Below are positions 1,297 through 14,590 of a DNA stretch of 14,590 nucleotides, in pieces. The DNA comes from a virus (Duplodnaviria > Heunggongvirae > Uroviricota > Caudoviricetes): positions 1 through 14,590 of the IMG/VR virus record IMGVR_UViG_2563366895_000002; one strand, 5' to 3'. Position numbers and translations under genes: made by a program. The notes under the pieces are model-generated. The model searched no databases. It was not told the origin of the DNA and saw only the letters and a program-made list of their open reading frames with translations. The first letter of the stretch is position 1; the number at the start of each line of letters is the position of its first letter.

Positions 1297-1470
1297 TGTA
1301 AAAGCCGCGAGGACAACGCTGTCGCAGTGTTGGCGGAACTGCTGACGCGTGCTTATCCTTGTCCGCCGCTGACACCACGTATACCAGCCGCTGCGGGCCA
1401 CCCGGAGCACGCGGCACATTGCTTTGATGCTGAACTCAGCCTGATGTTTTTCAATAAAGACATACTTCAT
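1297..1470 (-). pseudogene. insF: IS3 OrfB (InsF) N-terminal fragment, truncated after ~58 codons
   Basis: [58 protein letters not shown] matches the InsF N-terminus, then diverges and hits a stop; the DDE catalytic core is absent. Confidence 0.75.
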
Positions 1471-1766
1471 TTCAGGCGCTTCGCGAAGTATGTCGCGGCC
1501 TTTTGGAGGATAGCCAGCTCTTCATCCCGTTCTGCCAGCTGGCGTTTGAGACGTGCAATCTCGGTAGACATCTCCAGTTCACGTTCAGAAGACGTCTGCT
1601 GATTTTGCTGTTTACTGCGCCAGTTGTAGAGCTGTGATTCATACAGGCTGAGTTCACGGGCTGCGGCAGTAACACCGATGCGTTCAGCAAGCTTCAGGGC
1701 TTCACTGCGAAATTCAGGCGAATGCTGTTTACGGGGTTTTTTACTGGTTGATACTGTTTTTGTCAT
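1467..1766 (-). CDS. insE: IS3 OrfA transposase subunit (InsE), 99 aa
   Basis: Translation [40 protein letters not shown]... matches IS3 OrfA; ATG at 1766 (the track's 1775 start is an upstream GTG). Confidence 0.85.
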
Positions 1767-1831
1767 GTGAGTCACCTCTGACTGAGAGTTTACTCACTTA
1801 GCCGCGTGTCCACTATTGCTGGGTAAGATCA

Positions 1832-1994
1832 GCGAACGGTGTATTACCGGTTCGCTACCAGAGAAGAACGGGAAGGAAAGGTGAGCACGAATCTGATTTT
1901 TAAGGAGTGTCGCCAGAGTGCCGCGATGAAACGCGTATTGAGGGTATATAAAAGGAACATCAATGGGTACACAATGATGAAACAGGTGAGTTGA
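1832..1994 (+). pseudogene. renD: C-terminal remnant of Ren-like protein (renD'), separated from its 5' part by the IS3 insertion
   Basis: Frame starting at 1839 translates VYYRFATREEREGKVSTNLIFKECRQSAAMKRVL..., resembling the lambda Ren C-terminus from memory; it begins immediately at the IS3 end (1831) and stops at 1992-1994. Confidence 0.55.
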
Positions 1995-2044
1995 TTTCAA
2001 ACTGTAGTACAATTCTCTCCAGTTTGAACAGGAAAGAATATGCT

Positions 2045-2377
2045 ATGAACCCTTATATTTATCTTGGTGGTGCAATACTTGCAGAGGTCATTGGTACAAC
2101 CTTAATGAAGTTTTCAGAAGGTTTTACACGGTTATGGCCATCTGTTGGTACAATTATTTGTTATTGTGCATCATTCTGGTTATTAGCTCAGACGCTGGCT
2201 TATATTCCTACAGGGATTGCTTATGCTATCTGGTCAGGAGTCGGTATTGTCCTGATTAGCTTACTGTCATGGGGATTTTTCGGCCAACGGCTGGACCTGC
2301 CAGCCATTATAGGCATGATGTTGATTTGTGCCGGTGTGTTGGTTATTAATTTATTGTCACGAAGCACACCACATTAA
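2045..2377 (+). CDS. emrE: Small multidrug resistance (SMR) efflux transporter EmrE, 110 aa
   Basis: Translation MNPYIYLGGAILAEVIGTTLMKFSEGFTRLWPSVGTIICYCASFWLLAQTLAYIPTGIAYAIWSGVGIVLISLLSWGFFGQRLDLPAIIGMMLICAGVL.INLLSRSTPH matches EmrE from memory, including the conserved membrane-embedded Glu in the first helix (AILAEVIGT). ATG at 2045; the track's 1991 start is an upstream TTG. Confidence 0.95.
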   Translation: MNPYIYLGGAILAEVIGTTLMKFSEGFTRLWPSVGTIICYCASFWLLAQTLAYIPTGIAYAIWSGVGIVLISLLSWGFFGQRLDLPAIIGMMLICAGVLVINLLSRSTPH

Positions 2378-2408
2378 AAATAATTTGTTTCTAAACGACT
2401 AAAATATG

Positions 2409-2446
2409 GAGGCTCTTATATTTATATGAGCCTCGTTTTATGCTTT
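2409..2446 (+). terminator. Putative intrinsic terminator downstream of emrE
   Basis: GAGGCTC (2409-2415) pairs with GAGCCTC (2428-2434) around an AT-rich loop, followed by GTTTTATGCTTTTTG. Confidence 0.5.
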
Positions 2447-2633
2447 TTGTTAATGTCTTTATTTTTTTATGTATTCTTTTGTGCTTTCAAGATTATGGCG
2501 TAAGAAAATTGCAATACGATTATTGTTGTATATTCAAGATAATGTGACCTTAATTGTCTTTTTAAATAAAAATTAAACAAAAATTATATCTCACCACTAA
2601 GGTTTATAAAAGCATACGTTAGCAGGTGTCACC

Positions 2634-4160
2634 ATGAAAAAAGCCATAGCATATATGCGATTTTCATCACCAGGTCAGATGTCTGGCGACTCATTAAACC
2701 GACAGAGAAGACTTATTGCTGAATGGTTAAAGGTAAATAGTGATTATTATCTTGATACCATAACATATGAAGATTTAGGATTAAGTGCATTCAAAGGAAA
2801 GCATGCACAATCAGGAGCTTTTTCGGAATTTTTAGATGCTATAGAGCATGGTTATATATTGCCAGGAACTACATTGTTAGTTGAAAGTCTGGACAGACTT
2901 TCAAGAGAAAAAGTCGGTGAAGCGATTGAGCGTCTGAAATTGATTTTGAATCACGGTATTGATGTTATAACTCTTTGCGATAATACAGTCTATAATATTG
3001 ACTCTTTGAATGATCCATATTCATTAATAAAAGCCATACTTATAGCACAAAGGGCAAATGAAGAAAGCGAGATAAAGTCAAGTCGGGTTAAATTATCATG
3101 GAAGAAAAAACGGCAGGATGCACTGGAGTCAGGCACGATTATGACGGCGTCTTGTCCGAGATGGCTCTCCTTAGATGACAAAAGAACGGCTTTTGTTCCA
3201 GACCCCGACAGGGTGAAAACTATTGAGCTAATTTTTAAACTCAGGATGGAAAGGCGCTCATTGAATGCAATAGCCAAGTATTTAAATGATCATGCTGTAA
3301 AGAATTTCTCAGGAAAAGAAAGTGCATGGGGACCTTCTGTAATTGAAAAATTATTAGCGAATAAAGCTCTGATAGGTATATGCGTACCTTCATATCGTGC
3401 AAGAGGTAAAGGAATAAGTGAAATCGCTGGCTATTATCCCAGAGTCATATCAGATGATTTGTTTTACGCTGTGCAGGAAATTCGGTTGGCACCTTTTGGT
3501 ATTAGCAATAGTAGCAAAAACCCTATGTTGATAAATCTACTTCGAACAGTTATGAAGTGCGAGGCTTGTGGTAATACCATGATTGTTCATGCGGTATCTG
3601 GAAGTTTGCATGGCTATTATGTTTGTCCGATGAGAAGACTGCATCGATGTGACAGGCCATCAATAAAGAGAGATTTGGTTGATTATAATATCATTAATGA
3701 GTTGCTTTTTAATTGTAGTAAAATCCAACCAGTTGAAAACAAGAAAGATGCTAATGAAACTTTAGAGTTGAAAATTATTGAGCTCCAGATGAAAATTAAT
3801 AATTTAATTGCTGCATTATCTGTTGCGCCTGAAGTTACCGCTATAGCAGAAAAAATCAGAGTATTAGATAAGGAATTACGAAGGGCTTCTGTATCATTAA
3901 AAACTTTGAAGAGTAAAGCGGTGAGCTCACTTGGTGATTTTCATGCTATTGACTTAACCAGTAAAAATGGGCGAGAGCTATGTCGTACACTTGCCTATAA
4001 AACATTCGAAAAAATCATAATCAATACAGATAATAAAACCTGTGATATCTATTTTATGAATGGCATTGTTTTTAAACACTATCCTTTAATGAAAACAATA
4101 TCCGCCCAGCAGGCGATAAGTACTCTCAAATATATGGTTGATGGTGAGGTTTATTTTTGA
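2634..4160 (+). CDS. ybcK: Large serine recombinase (resolvase/invertase-type N-terminal domain), YbcK-like, 508 aa
   Basis: N-terminal YMRFSSPGQ motif with the presumptive catalytic Ser; a Cys-rich segment (CEACGN...CPMRRLHRC) typical of large serine recombinases. Matches DLP12 YbcK by length and sequence from memory. ATG at 2634 with AGGTG 6 nt upstream. Gene is visibly AT-rich. Confidence 0.85.
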   Translation: MKKAIAYMRFSSPGQMSGDSLNRQRRLIAEWLKVNSDYYLDTITYEDLGLSAFKGKHAQSGAFSEFLDAIEHGYILPGTTLLVESLDRLSREKVGEAIERLKLILNHGIDVITLCDNTVYNIDSLNDPYSLIKAILIAQRANEESEIKSSRVKLSWKKKRQDALESGTIMTASCPRWLSLDDKRTAFVPDPDRVKTIELIFKLRMERRSLNAIAKYLNDHAVKNFSGKESAWGPSVIEKLLANKALIGICVPSYRARGKGISEIAGYYPRVISDDLFYAVQEIRLAPFGISNSSKNPMLINLLRTVMKCEACGNTMIVHAVSGSLHGYYVCPMRRLHRCDRPSIKRDLVDYNIINELLFNCSKIQPVENKKDANETLELKIIELQMKINNLIAALSVAPEVTAIAEKIRVLDKELRRASVSLKTLKSKAVSSLGDFHAIDLTSKNGRELCRTLAYKTFEKIIINTDNKTCDIYFMNGIVFKHYPLMKTISAQQAISTLKYMVDGEVYF

Positions 4161-4271
4161 GTAATAATCACTTTTTCAACCGTGCTATAGTAAGAAAGTT
4201 AGGTAAGTACAATAAAATTATCTATCCTGAACGAAGCGTCCTGAGCTATGGTTTTACTATAGGGACTGCCA

Positions 4272-4589
4272 ATGGATGCTGGCGTTCTCGTTCTAGCAGT
4301 TCAACAATCCCCAATCACAAAACAATTCACTGATAACGAACTTTGCACACTCGCCTGGTTATGGCGAGCAGGGAATGTGATGTTAATTGCCTACCAGAAC
4401 GTTACTCATCTTCTTCAGGATGCGGAGCATGGTGAAGCTGGTCACTTCACTTCCATCGAGCAAGAATATCCCCAGATACTCAACAGAGCGCGAGCAATCC
4501 TCGTCCGAGAAACGGCACATGTAAAACTTCAGCCGTGGCAGGATGATAAGTGGAGTCGAGTATTGCCGTATTTGCGTCAAATCTGTTAG
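4272..4589 (+). CDS. Hypothetical protein, 105 aa, no family recognised
   Basis: ATG-initiated ORF with GC content near the host average, flanked by AT-rich DNA. No motif I can assign and no convincing Shine-Dalgarno seen; may be a gene remnant. Confidence 0.35.
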   Translation: MDAGVLVLAVQQSPITKQFTDNELCTLAWLWRAGNVMLIAYQNVTHLLQDAEHGEAGHFTSIEQEYPQILNRARAILVRETAHVKLQPWQDDKWSRVLPYLRQIC

Positions 4590-4686
4590 GAGTATAGCCG
4601 CCAGCCATGAGTGTTGTATTAAAACAAGGATGTCTATATATGGGATAGCGAGAGTATGAATATCAGTTATTTTGAGAGTTAACTGA

Positions 4687-4710
4687 TTGTGAAATTAGTT
4701 TTTTTCACAA
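4687..4710. promoter_or_regulatory. Inverted repeat TTGTGAAA-N8-TTTCACAA upstream of the 309-aa ORF; candidate operator
   Basis: Perfect 8-bp arms at 4687-4694 and 4703-4710 in an AT-rich intergenic region about 85 bp upstream of the ATG at 4794. Confidence 0.25.
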
Positions 4711-4793
4711 ACGAGTGGGGTTACTATGATGAGTGTTCTAATGCATAGGGAACACCTAATTTTTTCAATGAATTCAAATTGATAGGATCAAAA

Positions 4794-5723
4794 ATGGCAC
4801 AACAGAGAACTACCTCCCTCAGATCCATACCTTTAGACTTAGATGTTAAGCAAGAGGCTGTCATTAACGGTATAGAAATGGGGGTACTCGATAACGGAAT
4901 TCCGTACCTTACTCAGAATGGGTTGGCAAATGTTTGTGGTGTTCAGCGTTTGCGAATCAAGGAAATTACCGATGAGTGGGCTCAATCCGTTGAGAACGGT
5001 ATTTTCAAAAAAGGAAGAATGACTTTTATTGGTACATATCTTCTTAATGAAGGTTTTACAGATGAAAAACTTTATATACCAATAATTCGAAATGGTGTTG
5101 AGTACCATGCTTATCCAGATGTTGTATGCATGGCTATACTTGAATACTATGCCTTTGAAGCAAAACAAGCAGAAAGTGAGACTGCAATTAGATCTTACAG
5201 AGAGCTTGCTAAAAAAGGCCTCAAGACATTTATATACGAGGCGCTAAAATATCAACCGGAGGACCCGTGGAGGCATTACCATGACAGAGTATCTTTATTA
5301 AAAGATAAGGGAACCATACCTGATGGGTATTTCATTATATTTAATGAAATTGCAGGTATGATGGTAGATCTCATCAATGCTGGATTAGCGATTAATCAGC
5401 ATACCGTACCTGATGGCAGTGTTGGTTCTTGCTGGGCGCGTCACTGGAAAGCAAAGGGGTTAGCAACAGAATTTGGAGAAAGAGTAGACTGTGAGCATTA
5501 TTACCCTGAAGATTTTCTTCAGGCAAGTTCCAATCCTCAGATCATTAATGCCTATCCTGATTCTGCATTGTCAGAGTTTCGTAGATGGTTTAAGCATGAA
5601 TATTTAACCACAAAGTTCCCACCGTATATTCTTAAAAAATCAAACGTGCTTCCTGGTGGTACAGAAGATGCTAATCGTCTGATAGAAGCTTTCAAAAAAT
5701 CAGAGCTAGAAAATAAACCATAA
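4794..5723 (+). CDS. Hypothetical protein, 309 aa, unknown function; candidate prophage cargo or defence protein
   Basis: ATG at 4794 preceded by AGGA at 4784-4787 (the track's 4779 start is an upstream TTG). Long clean ORF, visibly AT-rich, no transmembrane or signal sequence evident. N-terminal segment (GIEMGVLDNGIPYLTQNGLANVCGVQRLRIKEITDEW) is loosely reminiscent of KilA-N/Bro-N DNA-binding domains; this is unverified. Confidence 0.6.
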   Translation: MAQQRTTSLRSIPLDLDVKQEAVINGIEMGVLDNGIPYLTQNGLANVCGVQRLRIKEITDEWAQSVENGIFKKGRMTFIGTYLLNEGFTDEKLYIPIIRNGVEYHAYPDVVCMAILEYYAFEAKQAESETAIRSYRELAKKGLKTFIYEALKYQPEDPWRHYHDRVSLLKDKGTIPDGYFIIFNEIAGMMVDLINAGLAINQHTVPDGSVGSCWARHWKAKGLATEFGERVDCEHYYPEDFLQASSNPQIINAYPDSALSEFRRWFKHEYLTTKFPPYILKKSNVLPGGTEDANRLIEAFKKSELENKP

Positions 5724-5821
5724 TTGTTTTTTGGCTTTTGATTTTACATAATCATTTTGCCATAATCATGTCATCGGAGCCTGAACAACTCCGGTGACTT
5801 CTGCGCTAAACGGGGACGTTT

Positions 5822-5923
5822 ATGCGCACATACAATCCAAACTCTCTTCTCCCTTCACAGATGCAGAGATGCACCTGCGATTTTTTGCATCCAGCGTTTG
5901 ACCTCTGCGGAGGTGAAGCGTGA
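5822..5923 (+). CDS. ylcH: Small protein YlcH-like, 33 aa
   Basis: [36 protein letters not shown] whose stop overlaps the ybcN GTG start (GTGA); position and size match DLP12 ylcH from memory. Confidence 0.45.
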
Positions 5924-6375
5924 ATCTCCCACAAGATGGCATCAAATTACATCGCGGTAACTTCACCGCTATCGGTCGGCAGATCCAGCCTTATCTGGAG
6001 GAGGGCAAATGCTTTCGCATGGTGCTTAAACCGTGGCGTGAGAAACGCAGTCTTTCCCAGAATGCACTCAGCCACATGTGGTACAGCGAAATCAGTGAAT
6101 ACCTCATCAACAGGGGTAAAACGTTCGCCACTCCAGCTTGGGTAAAAGATGCTCTCAAACACACATATCTCGGTTATGAAACCAAAGACCTGGTTGATGT
6201 CGTAACCGGTGATATCACCACTATCCAGTCGTTACGCCATACCTCCGATCTTGATACCGGAGAGATGTATGTCTTCCTGTGTAAGGTTGAAGCCTGGGCG
6301 GTGAATATTGGCTGCCACCTGACTATTCCGCAGAGCTGCGAGTTCCAGCTGCTCCGTGACAAGCAGGAGGCGTAA
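5920..6375 (+). CDS. ybcN: YbcN, NinB/Orf-like DNA-binding protein, 151 aa
   Basis: GTG start at 5920 with GGAGG upstream; translation matches DLP12 YbcN from memory. Confidence 0.85.
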
Positions 6376-6545
6376 TGGCTACACCGCTTATTCGTGTCAT
6401 GAACGGACACATCTACAGAGTATCAAATCGTCGTAAGCGTAAGCCTGAGCCGAAGCCATCCGAAATACCAACACTGCTCGGATATACCGCTAGCCTGGTT
6501 GATAAAAAATGGTTGCGACTGGCAGCAAGGAGGAATCATGGCTGA
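6375..6545 (+). CDS. ninE: NinE-like protein, 56 aa
   Basis: ATG overlaps the ybcN stop (TAATG); translation [56 protein letters not shown]. Below the track's length cutoff, found by reading the sequence. Confidence 0.75.
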   Translation: MATPLIRVMNGHIYRVSNRRKRKPEPKPSEIPTLLGYTASLVDKKWLRLAARRNHG

Positions 6546-6828
6546 TTTGAGAAAAGCAGCGCGTGGTCGGGAATGCCAGGTAAGAATCCCTGGCGTATGT
6601 AATGGCAATTCTGAAACGTCTGTACTGGCACATATCCGGCTGGCTGGATTGTGCGGTACCGGTATCAAACCGCCAGACCTGATTGCCACCATTGCATGTT
6701 CTGCCTGCCACGACGAAATCGACCGCCGCACACATTTTGTCGATGCTGCATATGCAAAAGAATGCGCGCTGGAAGGTATGGCGAGAACACAGGTTATTTG
6801 GCTGAAAGAGGGGGTTATTAAGGCGTGA
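6538..6828 (+). CDS. ybcO: YbcO, Cys/His-rich putative metal-binding nuclease-like protein, 96 aa
   Basis: ATG at 6538 overlapping the ninE 3' end; translation [24 protein letters not shown]...CSACHDEID matches YbcO from memory (the track's 6499 start is an upstream alternative). Confidence 0.8.
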
Positions 6829-7187
6829 ATACCTACAGCATCACATTACCCTGGCCTCCGAGCAATAATCGCTATTACCGCCATAATCGCGGGCGCACGC
6901 ACATCAGCGCAGAAGGGCAGGCATACCGCGATAACGTCACCCGAATCATTAAAAACGCAATGCTGGATATCGGCCTGGCTATGCCAGTGAAAATCCGTAT
7001 TGAGTGCCACATGCCGGATCGCCGTCGCCGTGACCTGGATAATCTGCAAAAAGCCGCTTTTGACGCACTCACCAAAGCAGGTTTCTGGCTGGATGATGCT
7101 CAGGTCGTTGATTACCGCGTTGTGAAGATGCCTGTTACCAAAGGTGGGAGGCTGGAACTGACCATCACCGAAATGGGGAATGAATGA
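6825..7187 (+). CDS. rusA: RusA Holliday junction resolvase, 120 aa
   Basis: GTG at 6825 overlapping the ybcO stop (GTGA); translation [36 protein letters not shown]... matches RusA from memory. Confidence 0.9.
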
Positions 7188-7324
7188 TGTTTGAGTTTTA
7201 TATGGCAGAACTTCTTCGCCACCGCTGGGGGCATCTGCGCTTATATCGTTTCCCCGGTTCTGTTTTGACCGATTACCGAATACTGAAGAATTACGCCAAA
7301 ACCCTGACAGGAGCAGGAGTATGA
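7184..7324 (+). CDS. ylcG: YlcG-like small protein, 46 aa
   Basis: ATG overlapping the rusA stop; translation [46 protein letters not shown]. Confidence 0.6.
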
Positions 7325-7409
7325 AGTCAGAGATAACAATCAACTAATACTGTTTTGTTGATTTTTGCTTGTAATTGGCGTTCTGGTCTGATTTTTGTGG
7401 AGTAAGTTG

Positions 7410-7793
7410 ATGCGTGATATTCAGATGGTTCTTGAGCGTTGGGGAGCGTGGGCGGCTAATAATCATGAAGATGTGACCTGGTCGTCCATTGCCGCCGGTT
7501 TTAAGGGATTAATTACTTCAAAAGTAAAATCTCGCCCGCAATGTTGTGACGATGACGCGATGATTATTTGCGGGTGCATGGCCCGTCTGAAAAAGAACAA
7601 CAGCGATTTGCACGATTTATTAGTAGATTATTATGTAGTCGGTATGACATTCATGTCACTGGCAGGTAAGCATTGCTGCTCTGATGGTTATATCGGGAAA
7701 AGGTTACAGAAGGCTGAGGGCATAATTGAAGGGATGTTAATGGCATTAGATATCCGGTTAGAGATGGATATCGTTGTTAATAACTCTAATTAA
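7410..7793 (+). CDS. quuD: Late-gene antiterminator Q homolog (QuuD), 127 aa
   Basis: ATG at 7410 (the track's 7395 start is an upstream TTG); translation [24 protein letters not shown]... with the Cys cluster [12 protein letters not shown]; sits immediately upstream of the hairpin cluster and lysis genes. Confidence 0.85.
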
Positions 7794-7810
7794 TATGCCA
7801 ATTGTTTACT

Positions 7811-7844
7811 AAAAATTATTAAAAATGGGGCGTTGAGACGCCCC
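7811..7844 (-). terminator. GC-rich hairpin GGGGCG-TTGAGA-CGCCCC with U-tract on the minus strand
   Basis: Stem 7827-7832 / 7839-7844; the + strand upstream is AAAAATTATTAAAAAT, which reads as a T-tract after the hairpin on the minus strand. Could terminate nmpC transcription or be part of the late promoter region; strand assignment is uncertain. Confidence 0.4.
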
Positions 7845-7883
7845 CAAAAATAAAGGGTAATATATAACAGAAGGTTTATATAG

Positions 7884-7972
7884 TTAGAAGCAAGGTTGTG
7901 CTTCTAAAGGAAGTGGCTTGAGGGAGCCACTTATATGTTGGGGAGGCAACGCCTCCCGCAACATATCTTTTT
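7884..7972 (+). terminator. Three consecutive hairpins downstream of quuD, the last followed by CTTTTT (tR'-like intrinsic terminator)
   Basis: Hairpins at 7884-7907 (TTAGAAGCA/TGCTTCTAA), 7911-7932 (AAGTGGCT/AGCCACTT) and 7933-7966 (ATATGTTGGGGAGGC/GCCTCCCGCAACATAT), then T-run 7967-7972. Position between Q and the lysis genes fits a lambdoid late leader/terminator. Confidence 0.5.
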
Positions 7973-7982
7973 CGTAATCAGA

Positions 7983-9080
7983 TTAGAACTGGTAAACCAG
8001 ACCTACAGCAACGATGTCATCAGTGCTTACACCGAGTGCTTTAGTGAAGTCATTTTTGTCAAGCAGGTTGATTTTGTAATCAACGAAAGTAGACATATTT
8101 TTGTTGAAGTAATAGGTTGCACCTACATCAACATATTTGACTAAGTCCTGATCGCCCCATACTCCAAGATCTTTACCTTTAGATTGCAGGTAAGCAACGG
8201 ACGGACGCAGACCGAAATCGAACTGATATTGTGCAACAGCTTCGAAGTTTTGGGCTTTATTAGCAACGAAGTGATCAGCAAATACAGTCATATTCTGGGT
8301 TTCAGAATAGGTAGTGGCCAGGTAAATGTTGTTAGCGTCATATTTCAGACCTGCGGCCCAAACTTCTGCATTTTTACCGGAAGCAAATACTTCAGGAAGA
8401 ACTTTCCCTGCATTAACTTGAGTGTCGGTACGATCAGATTTCGCATAAGTTGCACCGATACCGAATCCTTCGTATTCATAGGTAGCAGAGAAACCGAAGC
8501 CATCACCGTTACCTTCAGTGTAGTTATCGAAATCGCTACGATCGTTTTTGCCTTGGTACTGAGCAGCAAAGTTCAGACCATCAACCAGACCAAAGAAGTC
8601 GTTGTTACGATAGGTTGCAACACCAGTGGTGCGACCAGTCATGAACACATCTGTTTGGGTCCAGGTATCGCCACCGAATTCTGGCAGAACGTCAGTCCAC
8701 GCACCGATGTCGTATGCTACACCGTAGTTACGGCCGTAATCGATTGAGCCGTAGTCACCGAATTTCAGGCCTGCAAATGCAAGACGGGTTTTGTCTTTGG
8801 AGGAACCTTGAGATTCAGCGCGGTTGCCTTTGAATTCATATTCCCACTGACCGAAACCAGTCAGTTGATCGTTGATTTGGGTTTCACCTTTGAAGCCAAG
8901 ACGGGCATAAGTAGTATCACCATCATCTGCATCATTAGAGGAGAAGTAGTGCTTGGCATTAACTTTCCCGTACAGATCCAGCTTGTTACTGTCTTTATTA
9001 TAAATTTCAGCTGCCTGAGCAGACATCGCCATCAGTACTGATGCAGCTACAGCAGAAATTGCCACTGTTAATTTTTTCAT
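7983..9080 (-). CDS. nmpC: Outer membrane porin NmpC (OmpC/OmpD family), intact 365 aa with signal peptide
   Basis: Translation begins [29 protein letters not shown] and ends with the porin C-terminal ...VAVGLVYQF; full length with no interruption. Confidence 0.9.
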
Positions 9081-12106: not shown

Positions 12107-13327
12107 ATGGAAGTCAACAAAAAGCAGCTGGCTGATATTTTCGGTGCGAGTATCCGTACCATTCAGAACTGGCAGGAGCAGGGAATGCCCGTTCTGCGAG
12201 GCGGTGGCAAGGGTAATGAGGTGCTTTATGATTCTGCCGCCGTCATAAAATGGTATGCCGAAACCATGCCACAGGCGAGTTCTGTTGTTTCAATTACGTT
12301 GATTGGTGGCGCTGGATTTAACGTGGGGTCACCTCAACAGGCAGGTATATCTGAACTTGTTTTACGTGCAGGTAATGGTAATCCGAAGGGGATTACTGGT
12401 GCTTTATGGCAGCGCACATCGACAGGGTTTACAAATTTTGCCTGGGTCAATACATCTGGTGATACTTACGATATTTACGTTGCAATCGGAAATTATGCGA
12501 CTGGTGTAAATATTCAATGGGATTATACCAGTAATGCCAGCGTGACGATTCATACGTCACCAGCATATTCTGCTAATAAGCCGGAAGGGTTAACGGACGG
12601 TACAGTTTATTCACTCTATACGCCATCAGAGCAGTTTTATCCGCCTGGCGCACCAATCCCGTGGCCATCAGATACCGTTCCGTCTGGCTATGCCCTGATG
12701 CAGGGGCAGACTTTTGACAAATCTGCATACCCGAAACTTGCAGCCGCTTATCCGTCAGGCGTGATCCCTGATATGCGTGGCTGGACGATTAAGGGCAAAC
12801 CTGCCAGTGGTCGGGCCGTATTGTCTCAGGAACAGGACGGCATTAAATCGCATACCCACAGCGCCAGCGCATCCAGTACGGATTTGGGGACGAAAACCAC
12901 ATCGTCGTTTGATTACGGCACTAAATCCACGAATAACACTGGTGCGCATACCCATAGTTTAAGTGGCAGCACGAATGCAGCTGGTAATCACAGCCATAGA
13001 GATGGCCGTCGATTTAACCCCAGTGTTTTTAAAGATACTTATCAATATGGTTATACAAGCTCAGGTCAAAATACCTGGGGTGTACAAGGCTCAGTAGGTA
13101 TGTCTACGGGGTGGTTAGCGAATACCAGTACAGATGGTAATCATAGCCATTCACTGTCCGGCACAGCAGCATCTGCAGGTGCACACGCGCATACTGTCGG
13201 TATTGGTGCTCATACGCACTCCGTTGCGATTGGTTCACATGGACACACCATCACCGTTAACGCTGCTGGTAACGCGGAAAACACCGTCAAAAACATCGCA
13301 TTTAACTATATTGTGAGGCTTGCATAA
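12107..13327 (+). CDS. Chimeric ORF: terminase small subunit Nu1 N-terminus (aa 1-~52, winged-helix DNA-binding part) fused in frame to a side tail fibre C-terminal region (~354 aa) with HxH repeats
   Basis: First 52 residues [52 protein letters not shown] match lambda Nu1; after about 12264 the sequence switches to tail-fibre-like sequence ([48 protein letters not shown]...) with six HxH motifs (GAHTHS, GNHSHR, GNHSHS, GAHAHT, GAHTHS, GSHGHT). Confidence 0.8.
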
Positions 13328-13902
13328 TGGCATTCAGAATGAGTGAACAACCACGGACCATAAAAATTTATAATCTGCTGGCCGGAACTAATGAATTTAT
13401 TGGTGAAGGTGACGCATATATTCCGCCTCATACAGGTCTGCCAGCAAACAGTACCGATATTGCACCACCAGATATTCCTGCTGGCTTTGTGGCTGTTTTC
13501 AACAGTGATAAGGCATCGTGGCATCTCGTTGAAGACCATCGGGGTAAAACGGTTTATGACGTAGCGTCAGGGGACGCGTTATTTATTTCTGAACTCGGTC
13601 CGTTACCGGAAAATGTTACCTGGTTATCGCCGGAAGGGGAGTTTCAGAAGTGGAACGGCACAGCCTGGGTGAAAGATGCAGAAGCAGAAAAACTGTTCCG
13701 GATCCGAGAGGCGGAAGAAACAAAAAACAGCCTGATGCAGGTAGCCAGTGAGCATATTGCGCCACTTCAGGATGCTGTAGATCTGGAAATCGCAACGGAG
13801 GAAGAAACCTCATTGCTGGAAGCCTGGAAAAAGTATCGGGTGTTGCTGAACCGTGTTGATACGTCAACTGCACAGGATATTGAATGGCCAGCACTGCCGT
13901 AG
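13327..13902 (+). CDS. tfaR: Tail fibre assembly protein (Tfa; TfaR/TfaQ-like), 191 aa
   Basis: ATG overlaps the stop of the upstream fibre ORF (TAATG); translation [54 protein letters not shown]... matches Rac/Qin-type Tfa from memory. Confidence 0.9.
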
Positions 13903-13999: not shown

Positions 14000-14590
14000 T
14001 TATATGTCAGGTGTCTGAAGTTTTGCTTTGGCTCTTAAAATGGTTTGCCGCGAGGTTTTGAATTCCCGGGCAATGGCACTTATACTTACACCTGACTTAA
14101 TTCGTTCGAATACCACCTGTTTCTGTTCTTCATTTAACACAGGTGGTCGACCAAAACGTTTCCCTGCGCCGCGGGCTCTTACTATCCCGGAATGAGTGCG
14201 TTCAAGTAAAAGGTCTCGTTCAAATTCAGCGACTGCTGAAATTACGTGCATCATCATTTTTCCTGTTGGACTGGTCAGGTCAATGCCCCCCAATGCTAAG
14301 CAATGCACTCTGATACCTGTTTCGGTCAGTTGTTCCACTGTTTTCCTGATATCCATTGCATTACAACCAAGGCGATCCAGTTTTGTCACAATCAATTGAT
14401 CACCACATTTCAGGCGAGCAAGCAACCGGTTAAAACCAGGACGCTCACTGGTTGCTGCTGAGCCGCTAATGTGTTCTTCGATTATTTGCTGAGGTTTGAT
14501 TTTAAAACCTGCACTTTCGATTTCCCTGCGTTGATTTTCGATGGTCTGATCCAGCGTTGATATCCGACAGTAAGCAAAAATTCGAGACAT
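14000..14590 (-). CDS. pinR: Serine DNA invertase of the Pin/Gin/Hin/Cin family, complete 196 aa
   Basis: Start codon at the window edge (14588-14590); N-terminal catalytic motif [10 protein letters not shown] with the active-site Ser, and a C-terminal HTH ([22 protein letters not shown]). Closest to PinR/PinQ from memory. Confidence 0.9.

Follow-up and report, generated by a model that had tools for sequence, protein, structure and literature searches.

BstA is a single-protein abortive-infection system, built from a KilA-N-like N-terminal domain (residues 32-147 in the protein of Salmonella phage BTP1) and a C-terminal domain (PMC8585504). The protein localises to replicating phage DNA and stops phage DNA replication; nothing but a cognate DNA element, aba, suppresses it, and aba allows the carrier prophage to replicate after induction (PMC8585504). 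BstA-BTP1, BstA-Ec and BstA-Kp each give defence from constructs with bstA alone, and there are aba elements cognate to each BstA variant; that of BTP1 runs from position -29 to position +34 of bstA and needs the CCCGCC repeats at its ends (PMC8585504). Within the E. coli set of Hochhauser et al. 2023, bstA was confined to lambda-like prophages integrated at tRNA-Arg, which is hotspot 32 of that study. As for defence hotspots carried by phages themselves, those described by Rousset et al. 2022 (PMC9122126) lie inside P2-like phages and P4-like satellites.

Here we analyze a prophage locus that carries a member of the BstA family. The window, by which we mean the whole stretch of 14,590 nucleotides under analysis, is a DLP12-type lambdoid prophage remnant according to its map of open reading frames (ORFs) and to a blastn comparison with the DLP12 prophage of E. 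coli K-12 MG1655. Our main reading, to which we give a probability of about 85%, is that the slot upstream of ylcH carries the defence gene bstA where K-12 has ybcL-ybcM, and that the bstA cassette would have been placed there once illegitimately and would then have spread homologously. The swap is real, and it is a case of ordinary, already catalogued prophage mosaicism; the literature already has the BstA family, this very protein and the lambdoid prophages at tRNA-Arg that carry it.

The remnant sits at the argU tRNA-Arg site of E. coli, and hotspot 32 of Hochhauser et al. is the locus of this window. The closest complete genome is that of strain WL164 (99.9% identity across the entire window), in which tRNA-Arg (argU) directly adjoins intD. 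Replication and morphogenesis genes are absent from the remnant. In most of the other genomes with this interval, that of strain GE3 among them, the prophage is full-length, and bet, gam, cI, cro, O, P, ren and terminase genes are present. The features of the window are the following.

1-1164, minus: intD
between intD and ybcK: an IS3 fragment, inverted, then emrE
2634-4160, plus: ybcK, large serine recombinase, 508 aa; conserved left flank
4161-4199: K-12-homologous tail after the ybcK stop codon, 39 bp (blastn)
4200-4577, plus: scaffold segment, absent from K-12, holding most of the 105-aa ORF
4272-4589, plus: 105-aa ORF, putative truncated Bro-N/P22AR_C antirepressor-like gene, P22AR_C half only
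4578-5735, plus: bstA-specific cassette, a 216-bp upstream region (4578-4793) plus the bstA coding sequence
4590-4830, plus: sequence 5′ of bstA together with the start of the coding sequence (~35 bp)
4794-5723, plus: predicted bstA, 309 aa from the ATG (PADLOC, PHROGs, pairwise alignment)
5736-5821, plus: nin-operon leader, conserved in every allele; fixed right junction
5822-5923, plus: ylcH; conserved right flank
5920-6375, plus: ybcN; conserved right flank
3′ of ybcN, in this order: ninE, ybcO, rusA, quuD
7983-9080, minus: nmpC-type porin, 365 aa, intact (split by IS5 in K-12)
beyond the porin: lysis genes and bor/iss
12107-13327: nohD-tail-fibre fusion ORF, 406 aa
13327-13902: tail-fibre assembly gene tfa
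14000-14590, minus: Pin-like invertase

The blastn alignment to K-12 DLP12 gives homology at window positions 1822-4199 (96.7%) and 5736-8049 (97.7%), and none between them. On the left, ybcK is 96% identical to its K-12 counterpart at the nucleotide level, and Pfam recognizes in the protein the domains Resolvase, Recombinase and Zn_ribbon_recom. On the right, the ylcH-ybcN flank is 97.7% identical to K-12, and we took its annotation from the identical sequence in GE3. On the left, homology to K-12 breaks off at 4199/4200, and 1536 bp (4200-5735) occupy the place of 1812 bp that carry ybcL-ybcM in K-12; both ybcL and ybcM (positions 6894-8252 of the K-12 DLP12 locus) are absent from the window. 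The break is clean and not a product of chance, because about 105 complete E. coli genomes have this block, 99.7-100% identical and with the same junctions.

The initial annotation had described DLP12 flanks (ybcK on the left, ylcH and ybcN on the right) around two ORFs, of 105 and 309 aa, that do not match ybcL-ybcM. The alignment agrees with it on the flanks, on the two ORFs and on the content, and there is no collinearity with K-12 ybcL-ybcM across 4200-5735. It had extended the replacement over 4161-5821; a replacement is there, but the non-homologous block is slightly narrower (4200-5735). Its description of the content as swapped is right for the bstA cassette, but not for the left 378 bp (4200-4577), which are a scaffold common to several alleles. 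Because that scaffold is common to several alleles, the ybcL-ybcM pair of K-12 is as much a replacing allele as bstA is, one among many. The annotation had recognized neither the 309-aa ORF as bstA nor the 105-aa ORF as a remnant common to alleles. The K-12 allele is like the one in the window in its slot, its flanks and its chromosomal argU site, and differs from it in having a cargo unrelated to bstA (a PEBP-family periplasmic protein and an AraC-type regulator), in having no P22AR_C remnant, and in a left breakpoint that lies 378 bp further left.

By sequence comparison, the 309-aa ORF is a full-length protein of the BstA abortive-infection family. It matches the PADLOC BstA model PDLC02356 (E-value 3.6e-121, over 5-291 of 292 profile positions) and phrog_6287, annotated as 'BstA abortive infection system, replication inhibitor' (E-value 1.8e-136). 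Aligned to the founding BstA of BTP1 it has 40% identity and is collinear (residues 3-308 versus 4-305), and this alignment also speaks for the ATG at 4794 as the start; an upstream TTG would give an alternative protein of 314 aa. Identity to the BstA-Ec type, taken from strain 2012C-4431, is 38%, again collinear. The identification draws on PADLOC, PHROGs and pairwise alignments; searches of the 309-aa protein against Pfam and NCBIfam return no family match. In particular, a KilA-N domain has no Pfam match even at E ≤ 1, but residues 25-150 match a PADLOC HTH model (E-value 2e-8) and the BTP1 alignment is collinear across both domains. A PDB sequence search with the same protein gave no meaningful solved homolog (best E-value 0.02, over 38 residues).

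The protein is identical to RefSeq WP_000068668.1, and GE3, WL164 and NCTC8623 all have this same accession. In NCTC8623, the identical protein is in the context ybcK-P22AR_C-bstA-ylcH-ybcN, and that copy is among the 72 BstA homologs in Table S1 of Owen et al. 2021 (PMC8585504), with matching coordinates.

The window BstA resembles that of BTP1 in being full-length and collinear (309 versus 307 aa), in being prophage-borne, in being a single gene, and in having the conserved block YPDxVCMAILEYYAF. The gene lies in a DLP12-type lambdoid prophage at argU, as a remnant here and at full length in GE3 and others. Unlike BTP1, where bstA is downstream of the cI repressor, bstA in the window lies between ybcK and the nin operon, and we found at it neither a CCCGCC-type terminal repeat nor a recognizable aba. 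The experimentally tested BstA-Ec type (E. coli NCTC10963 / 2012C-4431) is of the same family and from the same host species, but its gene comes immediately after that of a LexA-family repressor in a P22-like prophage, and it shares with the window protein the 38% identity given above. Even in the full-length prophage of GE3, bstA is about 5 kb from cI, between ybcK and ylcH, and not directly downstream of the repressor, a position that is frequent but not obligatory in the family. In GE3, the gene beside cI (1489-3090, minus strand, of locus L002) codes for a 533-aa SIR2-family protein, a PADLOC candidate PDC-S25 (E-value 6e-235). The full-length bstA prophage carries two defence cargo sites, since this SIR2 gene fills the repressor-adjacent position, which is the place of bstA in BTP1.

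What would BstA do here? We transfer the mechanism from the homologs of BTP1, E. coli NCTC10963 and Klebsiella, and the function assigned to the window protein is a prediction by homology, for a lineage that is 38-40% identical to the three tested proteins. BstA would be produced in the lysogen, and on infection by a sensitive phage it would reach the replication foci through its N-terminal DNA-binding domain. Phage DNA replication would be blocked, the infected cell would die, and the population would be protected. In an intact carrier, an aba at the 5′ end of bstA would exempt the prophage's own replicating DNA. In the remnant, bstA would act purely as a domesticated host defence gene, and aba and self-immunity would be moot because the remnant is without replication genes. 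Cross-immunity with the BstA-Ec type is not expected, because aba is cognate to each variant.

A search for aba-like direct repeats of at least 6 nt straddling the ATG at 4794 found one, versus 1.4 expected by shuffling. Nothing like the CCCGCC terminal repeats of BTP1 is present around this ATG, although aba elements are variant-specific and without a known consensus. Conservation footprinting of aba is impossible among carriers that are 99.7-100% identical. Likewise, a promoter and terminator scan of 4100-5950 gave counts not above those of shuffled controls, so that neither a promoter nor a terminator of bstA can be claimed; the sole promoter-like site upstream of the gene (4702-4730) is no better than chance.

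Could bstA in this remnant be just a silent, decaying passenger without present function? The prophage is heavily deleted, the scan gave no convincing bstA promoter, and in several other genomes the cassette is truncated or interrupted by insertion sequences, all of which one would expect of a passenger. On the other hand, nothing interrupts the ORF, and about 100 other genomes, with intact prophages among them, have the identical protein; and abortive-infection genes are commonly retained in cryptic prophages. We regard decay as unlikely.

To see what else can occupy the slot, we searched 5426 complete E. coli genomes using a joined flank query and allele-specific queries, together with annotated examples. 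Among the lambdoid prophages of E. coli, the stretch from ybcK (or ren/P) to ylcH has at least eight different contents.

ybcL-ybcM, ≥99% identical to K-12: about 675 genomes, including many laboratory derivatives of K-12
P22AR_C remnant plus bstA: 104-110 genomes
P22AR_C remnant plus a 118-aa unknown: 155 genomes, F637 as an example
BD-FAE alpha/beta hydrolase, on the opposite strand: 670 genomes
scraps only: O157:H7
Bro-N/P22AR_C plus HEPN (PADLOC PDC-M28A, E-value 2e-7) plus an unknown: H19
Septu-like ATPase/nuclease pair, PDC-M62A/B (E-values 4e-44 and 4e-33): ETEC-2264
two unknowns, of 186 and 150 aa: BA22372

At least three of these alleles are, by their profile matches, known or candidate defence systems. 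In ETEC-2264, the pair (1672-4661, minus strand, of locus L012) consists of a 595-aa AAA ATPase, PDC-M62A, and the 322-aa PDC-M62B, and lies directly 5′ of ylcH; this prophage has neither emrE nor ybcK. In H19, there is a 115-aa protein between P and the cargo (5455-5802, minus strand, of locus L006) that matches the Pfam family VCH_CASS14, 'integron cassette protein' (E-value 6e-20), and it is a further small accessory gene at the same junction.

The bstA cassette has no homology to any other allele compared, and its GC content is 38%, versus 48% for the nin genes. At ≥99% identity, it is present in 110 of the 5426 genomes, abutting the P22AR_C remnant every time! The cassette is 99.7-100% identical among carriers, while the flanks diverge by 2-7% between alleles, and this difference indicates one recent acquisition.

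The 105-aa ORF, on the other hand, appears from these comparisons to be a decaying remnant of the scaffold that lies outside the bstA cassette. It has a P22_AR_C domain (Pfam PF10548, E-value 7.7e-14, residues 15-85), and it is 78% identical to residues 101-198 of a 202-aa Bro-N+P22AR_C protein that strain H19 has at the same position; in the alignment to this H19 protein, the N-terminal Bro-N or other DNA-binding domain is missing from the 105-aa ORF. The scaffold is common to F637 up to 4577, to YP3 up to 4445, and to O157 up to 4226 plus a 37-bp scrap. Compared to the copy in F637, the ORF has 12 nonsynonymous and 7 synonymous codon differences; ybcK, which is five times longer, has only 2 nonsynonymous and 7 synonymous. 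In NCTC8623, the ORF has an internal stop while bstA is intact. Because the 105-aa segment is common to other alleles and is decaying, the bstA-specific DNA is 4578-5735.

Alternatively, the P22AR_C protein and BstA could form a two-gene functional unit, a regulator or sensor with its effector for instance, in which case the pair would be the real cassette. The two ORFs are adjacent and on the same strand in all carriers, there is a stand-alone 107-aa family in PHROGs (phrog_7640, E-value 2e-69), and the N-terminal domain of BstA and Bro-N/P22AR_C belong to the same pool of shuffled phage DNA-binding modules. But in F637 the same ORF stands before a 118-aa cargo unrelated to bstA, YP3 has a truncated version of it, in O157 hardly any of it is left, and it is only the C-terminal half of a 202-aa gene; it also has 12 nonsynonymous to 7 synonymous changes and, in NCTC8623, an internal stop alongside an intact bstA. 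The BstA proteins of BTP1 and of 2012C-4431 are without such a neighbor, and the three tested variants defend from bstA-only constructs (PMC8585504). We find a functional pair quite improbable.

Turning to the junctions, all alleles have in common the right one, at window positions 5736-5738, whereas the left junctions are nested at 4199, 4226, 4445 and 4577. The initial annotation had suggested a recombination hotspot for accessory genes, whose gene sets and breakpoints should be tabulated; a slot with at least eight contents and one common right junction supports that suggestion. Direct or inverted repeats bounding the cassette amount to short matches at chance level. Right of the common junction is the nin-operon leader, which starts with a TTGATT-N6-AATCAA inverted repeat (5738-5755; AATCAT in the window) that overlaps a -35-like hexamer. 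Together with a CATAAT -10-like hexamer, this -35-like hexamer makes up a promoter-like site with a TG extension at 5738-5766, and a hairpin with a 10-bp stem follows at 5770-5798, just 5′ of ylcH (-22.7 kcal/mol, z = -3.8). Conceivable roles for the leader are those of promoter, operator or terminator-like signal. In H19, it is duplicated to the left of the cargo (window 5762-5899 corresponding to 6001-6138 of locus L006), so that it stands on both sides of the cargo, as expected if the leader is a recombination anchor.

The fixed right junction, the nested left junctions, the lack of bounding repeats, and the equal variation of the slot in prophages without ybcK (H19, ETEC-2264, BA22372 and ST131) fit homologous plus illegitimate recombination, that is, classical lambdoid mosaicism, rather than site-specific exchange. 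That the cargo would be exchanged site-specifically by the adjacent serine recombinase YbcK, with the prophage housing an integron-like or mobile cassette system, is very improbable: ybcK does lie immediately left of the variable segment, and the right junction, exact to within 1-2 bp, falls on the conserved inverted repeat, but the left junctions are at four positions, the right-junction motif is not repeated at the left, where there are short chance-level repeats only, the slot varies just as much in the four ybcK-less prophages, and a requirement to retain the nin-operon leader would account equally well for so exact a right junction; we found neither the same site at both ends nor a dependence on the recombinase.

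Under lambdoid mosaicism, with the recombination history read from breakpoints only, the 1.16-kb low-GC cassette (4578-5735) would have entered a single time, by an illegitimate recombination event that set it between an antirepressor-like gene and the nin leader. The antirepressor-like gene would survive only as the 105-aa remnant. The cassette would then have spread among argU prophages as their conserved flanks recombined homologously. The other alleles of the slot may have the same origin and spread, as rare illegitimate insertions beside a leader that needs to be preserved.

The slot resembles the hotspots of Rousset et al. in being a fixed backbone position with interchangeable and often defensive cargo (BstA, the Septu-like PDC-M62, the HEPN candidate). 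Unlike those hotspots, it is in a lambdoid prophage, at the ren/nin junction, and for several of its alleles, namely ybcL-ybcM, the alpha/beta hydrolase and small unknowns, a role in defence is not known. We offer only tentatively the wider idea that the site directly 5′ of ylcH and the nin leader may be an unrecognized intra-prophage defence hotspot, with the leader as recombination anchor and with uncharacterized alleles that are new anti-phage genes. If that idea were true, the 118-aa protein, the 186- and 150-aa pair, and the BD-FAE alpha/beta hydrolase would be such genes. The residual value of the analysis is this short catalogue of uncharacterized slot alleles as candidates for new defence functions, among them WP_000379700.1, WP_000720581.1 with WP_000825400.1, and WP_001251751.1. 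For the window itself, the finding explains a difference between strains in a much-studied cryptic prophage, bstA versus the ybcL-ybcM of K-12, and having bstA in that place can alter phage sensitivity, which is relevant to phage typing or therapy.

The genome search also showed ybcL-ybcM, at ~92% identity, outside any prophage in about 2583 of the 5426 complete E. coli genomes. There, a non-prophage island between fliE and yedK has emrE, ybcL, ybcM and an nmpC/ompC-like porin, without ybcK, nin genes or Q (as an example, L010, NZ_CP098214.1 2109507-2120986, locus positions 4600-8043). Either a prophage has been reduced to the extreme there, or the island is the chromosomal source of these genes, which are the four 'moron' genes of DLP12.

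Finally, a few observations concern the rest of the remnant. An Rfam scan of the whole window gave no match in or near the interval; its sole match is IS009 (226.7 bits, full length), within the tail-fibre assembly gene at 13670-13868 on the plus strand. In the 406-aa fusion ORF, the first ~50 codons come from nohD, the DNA-packaging small subunit, and are joined to the C-terminal part of a tail-fibre gene; the head and tail genes once between these two portions have all been deleted. The early region from xis to ren is wholly missing in comparison with full-length relatives such as GE3, and the truncated IS3 around 1260-1840 has the opposite orientation to that in K-12 (window 1298-1840 corresponds to 3311-2769 of the K-12 DLP12 locus). 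The result is a deletion or inversion associated with IS3, and K-12 is arranged differently.
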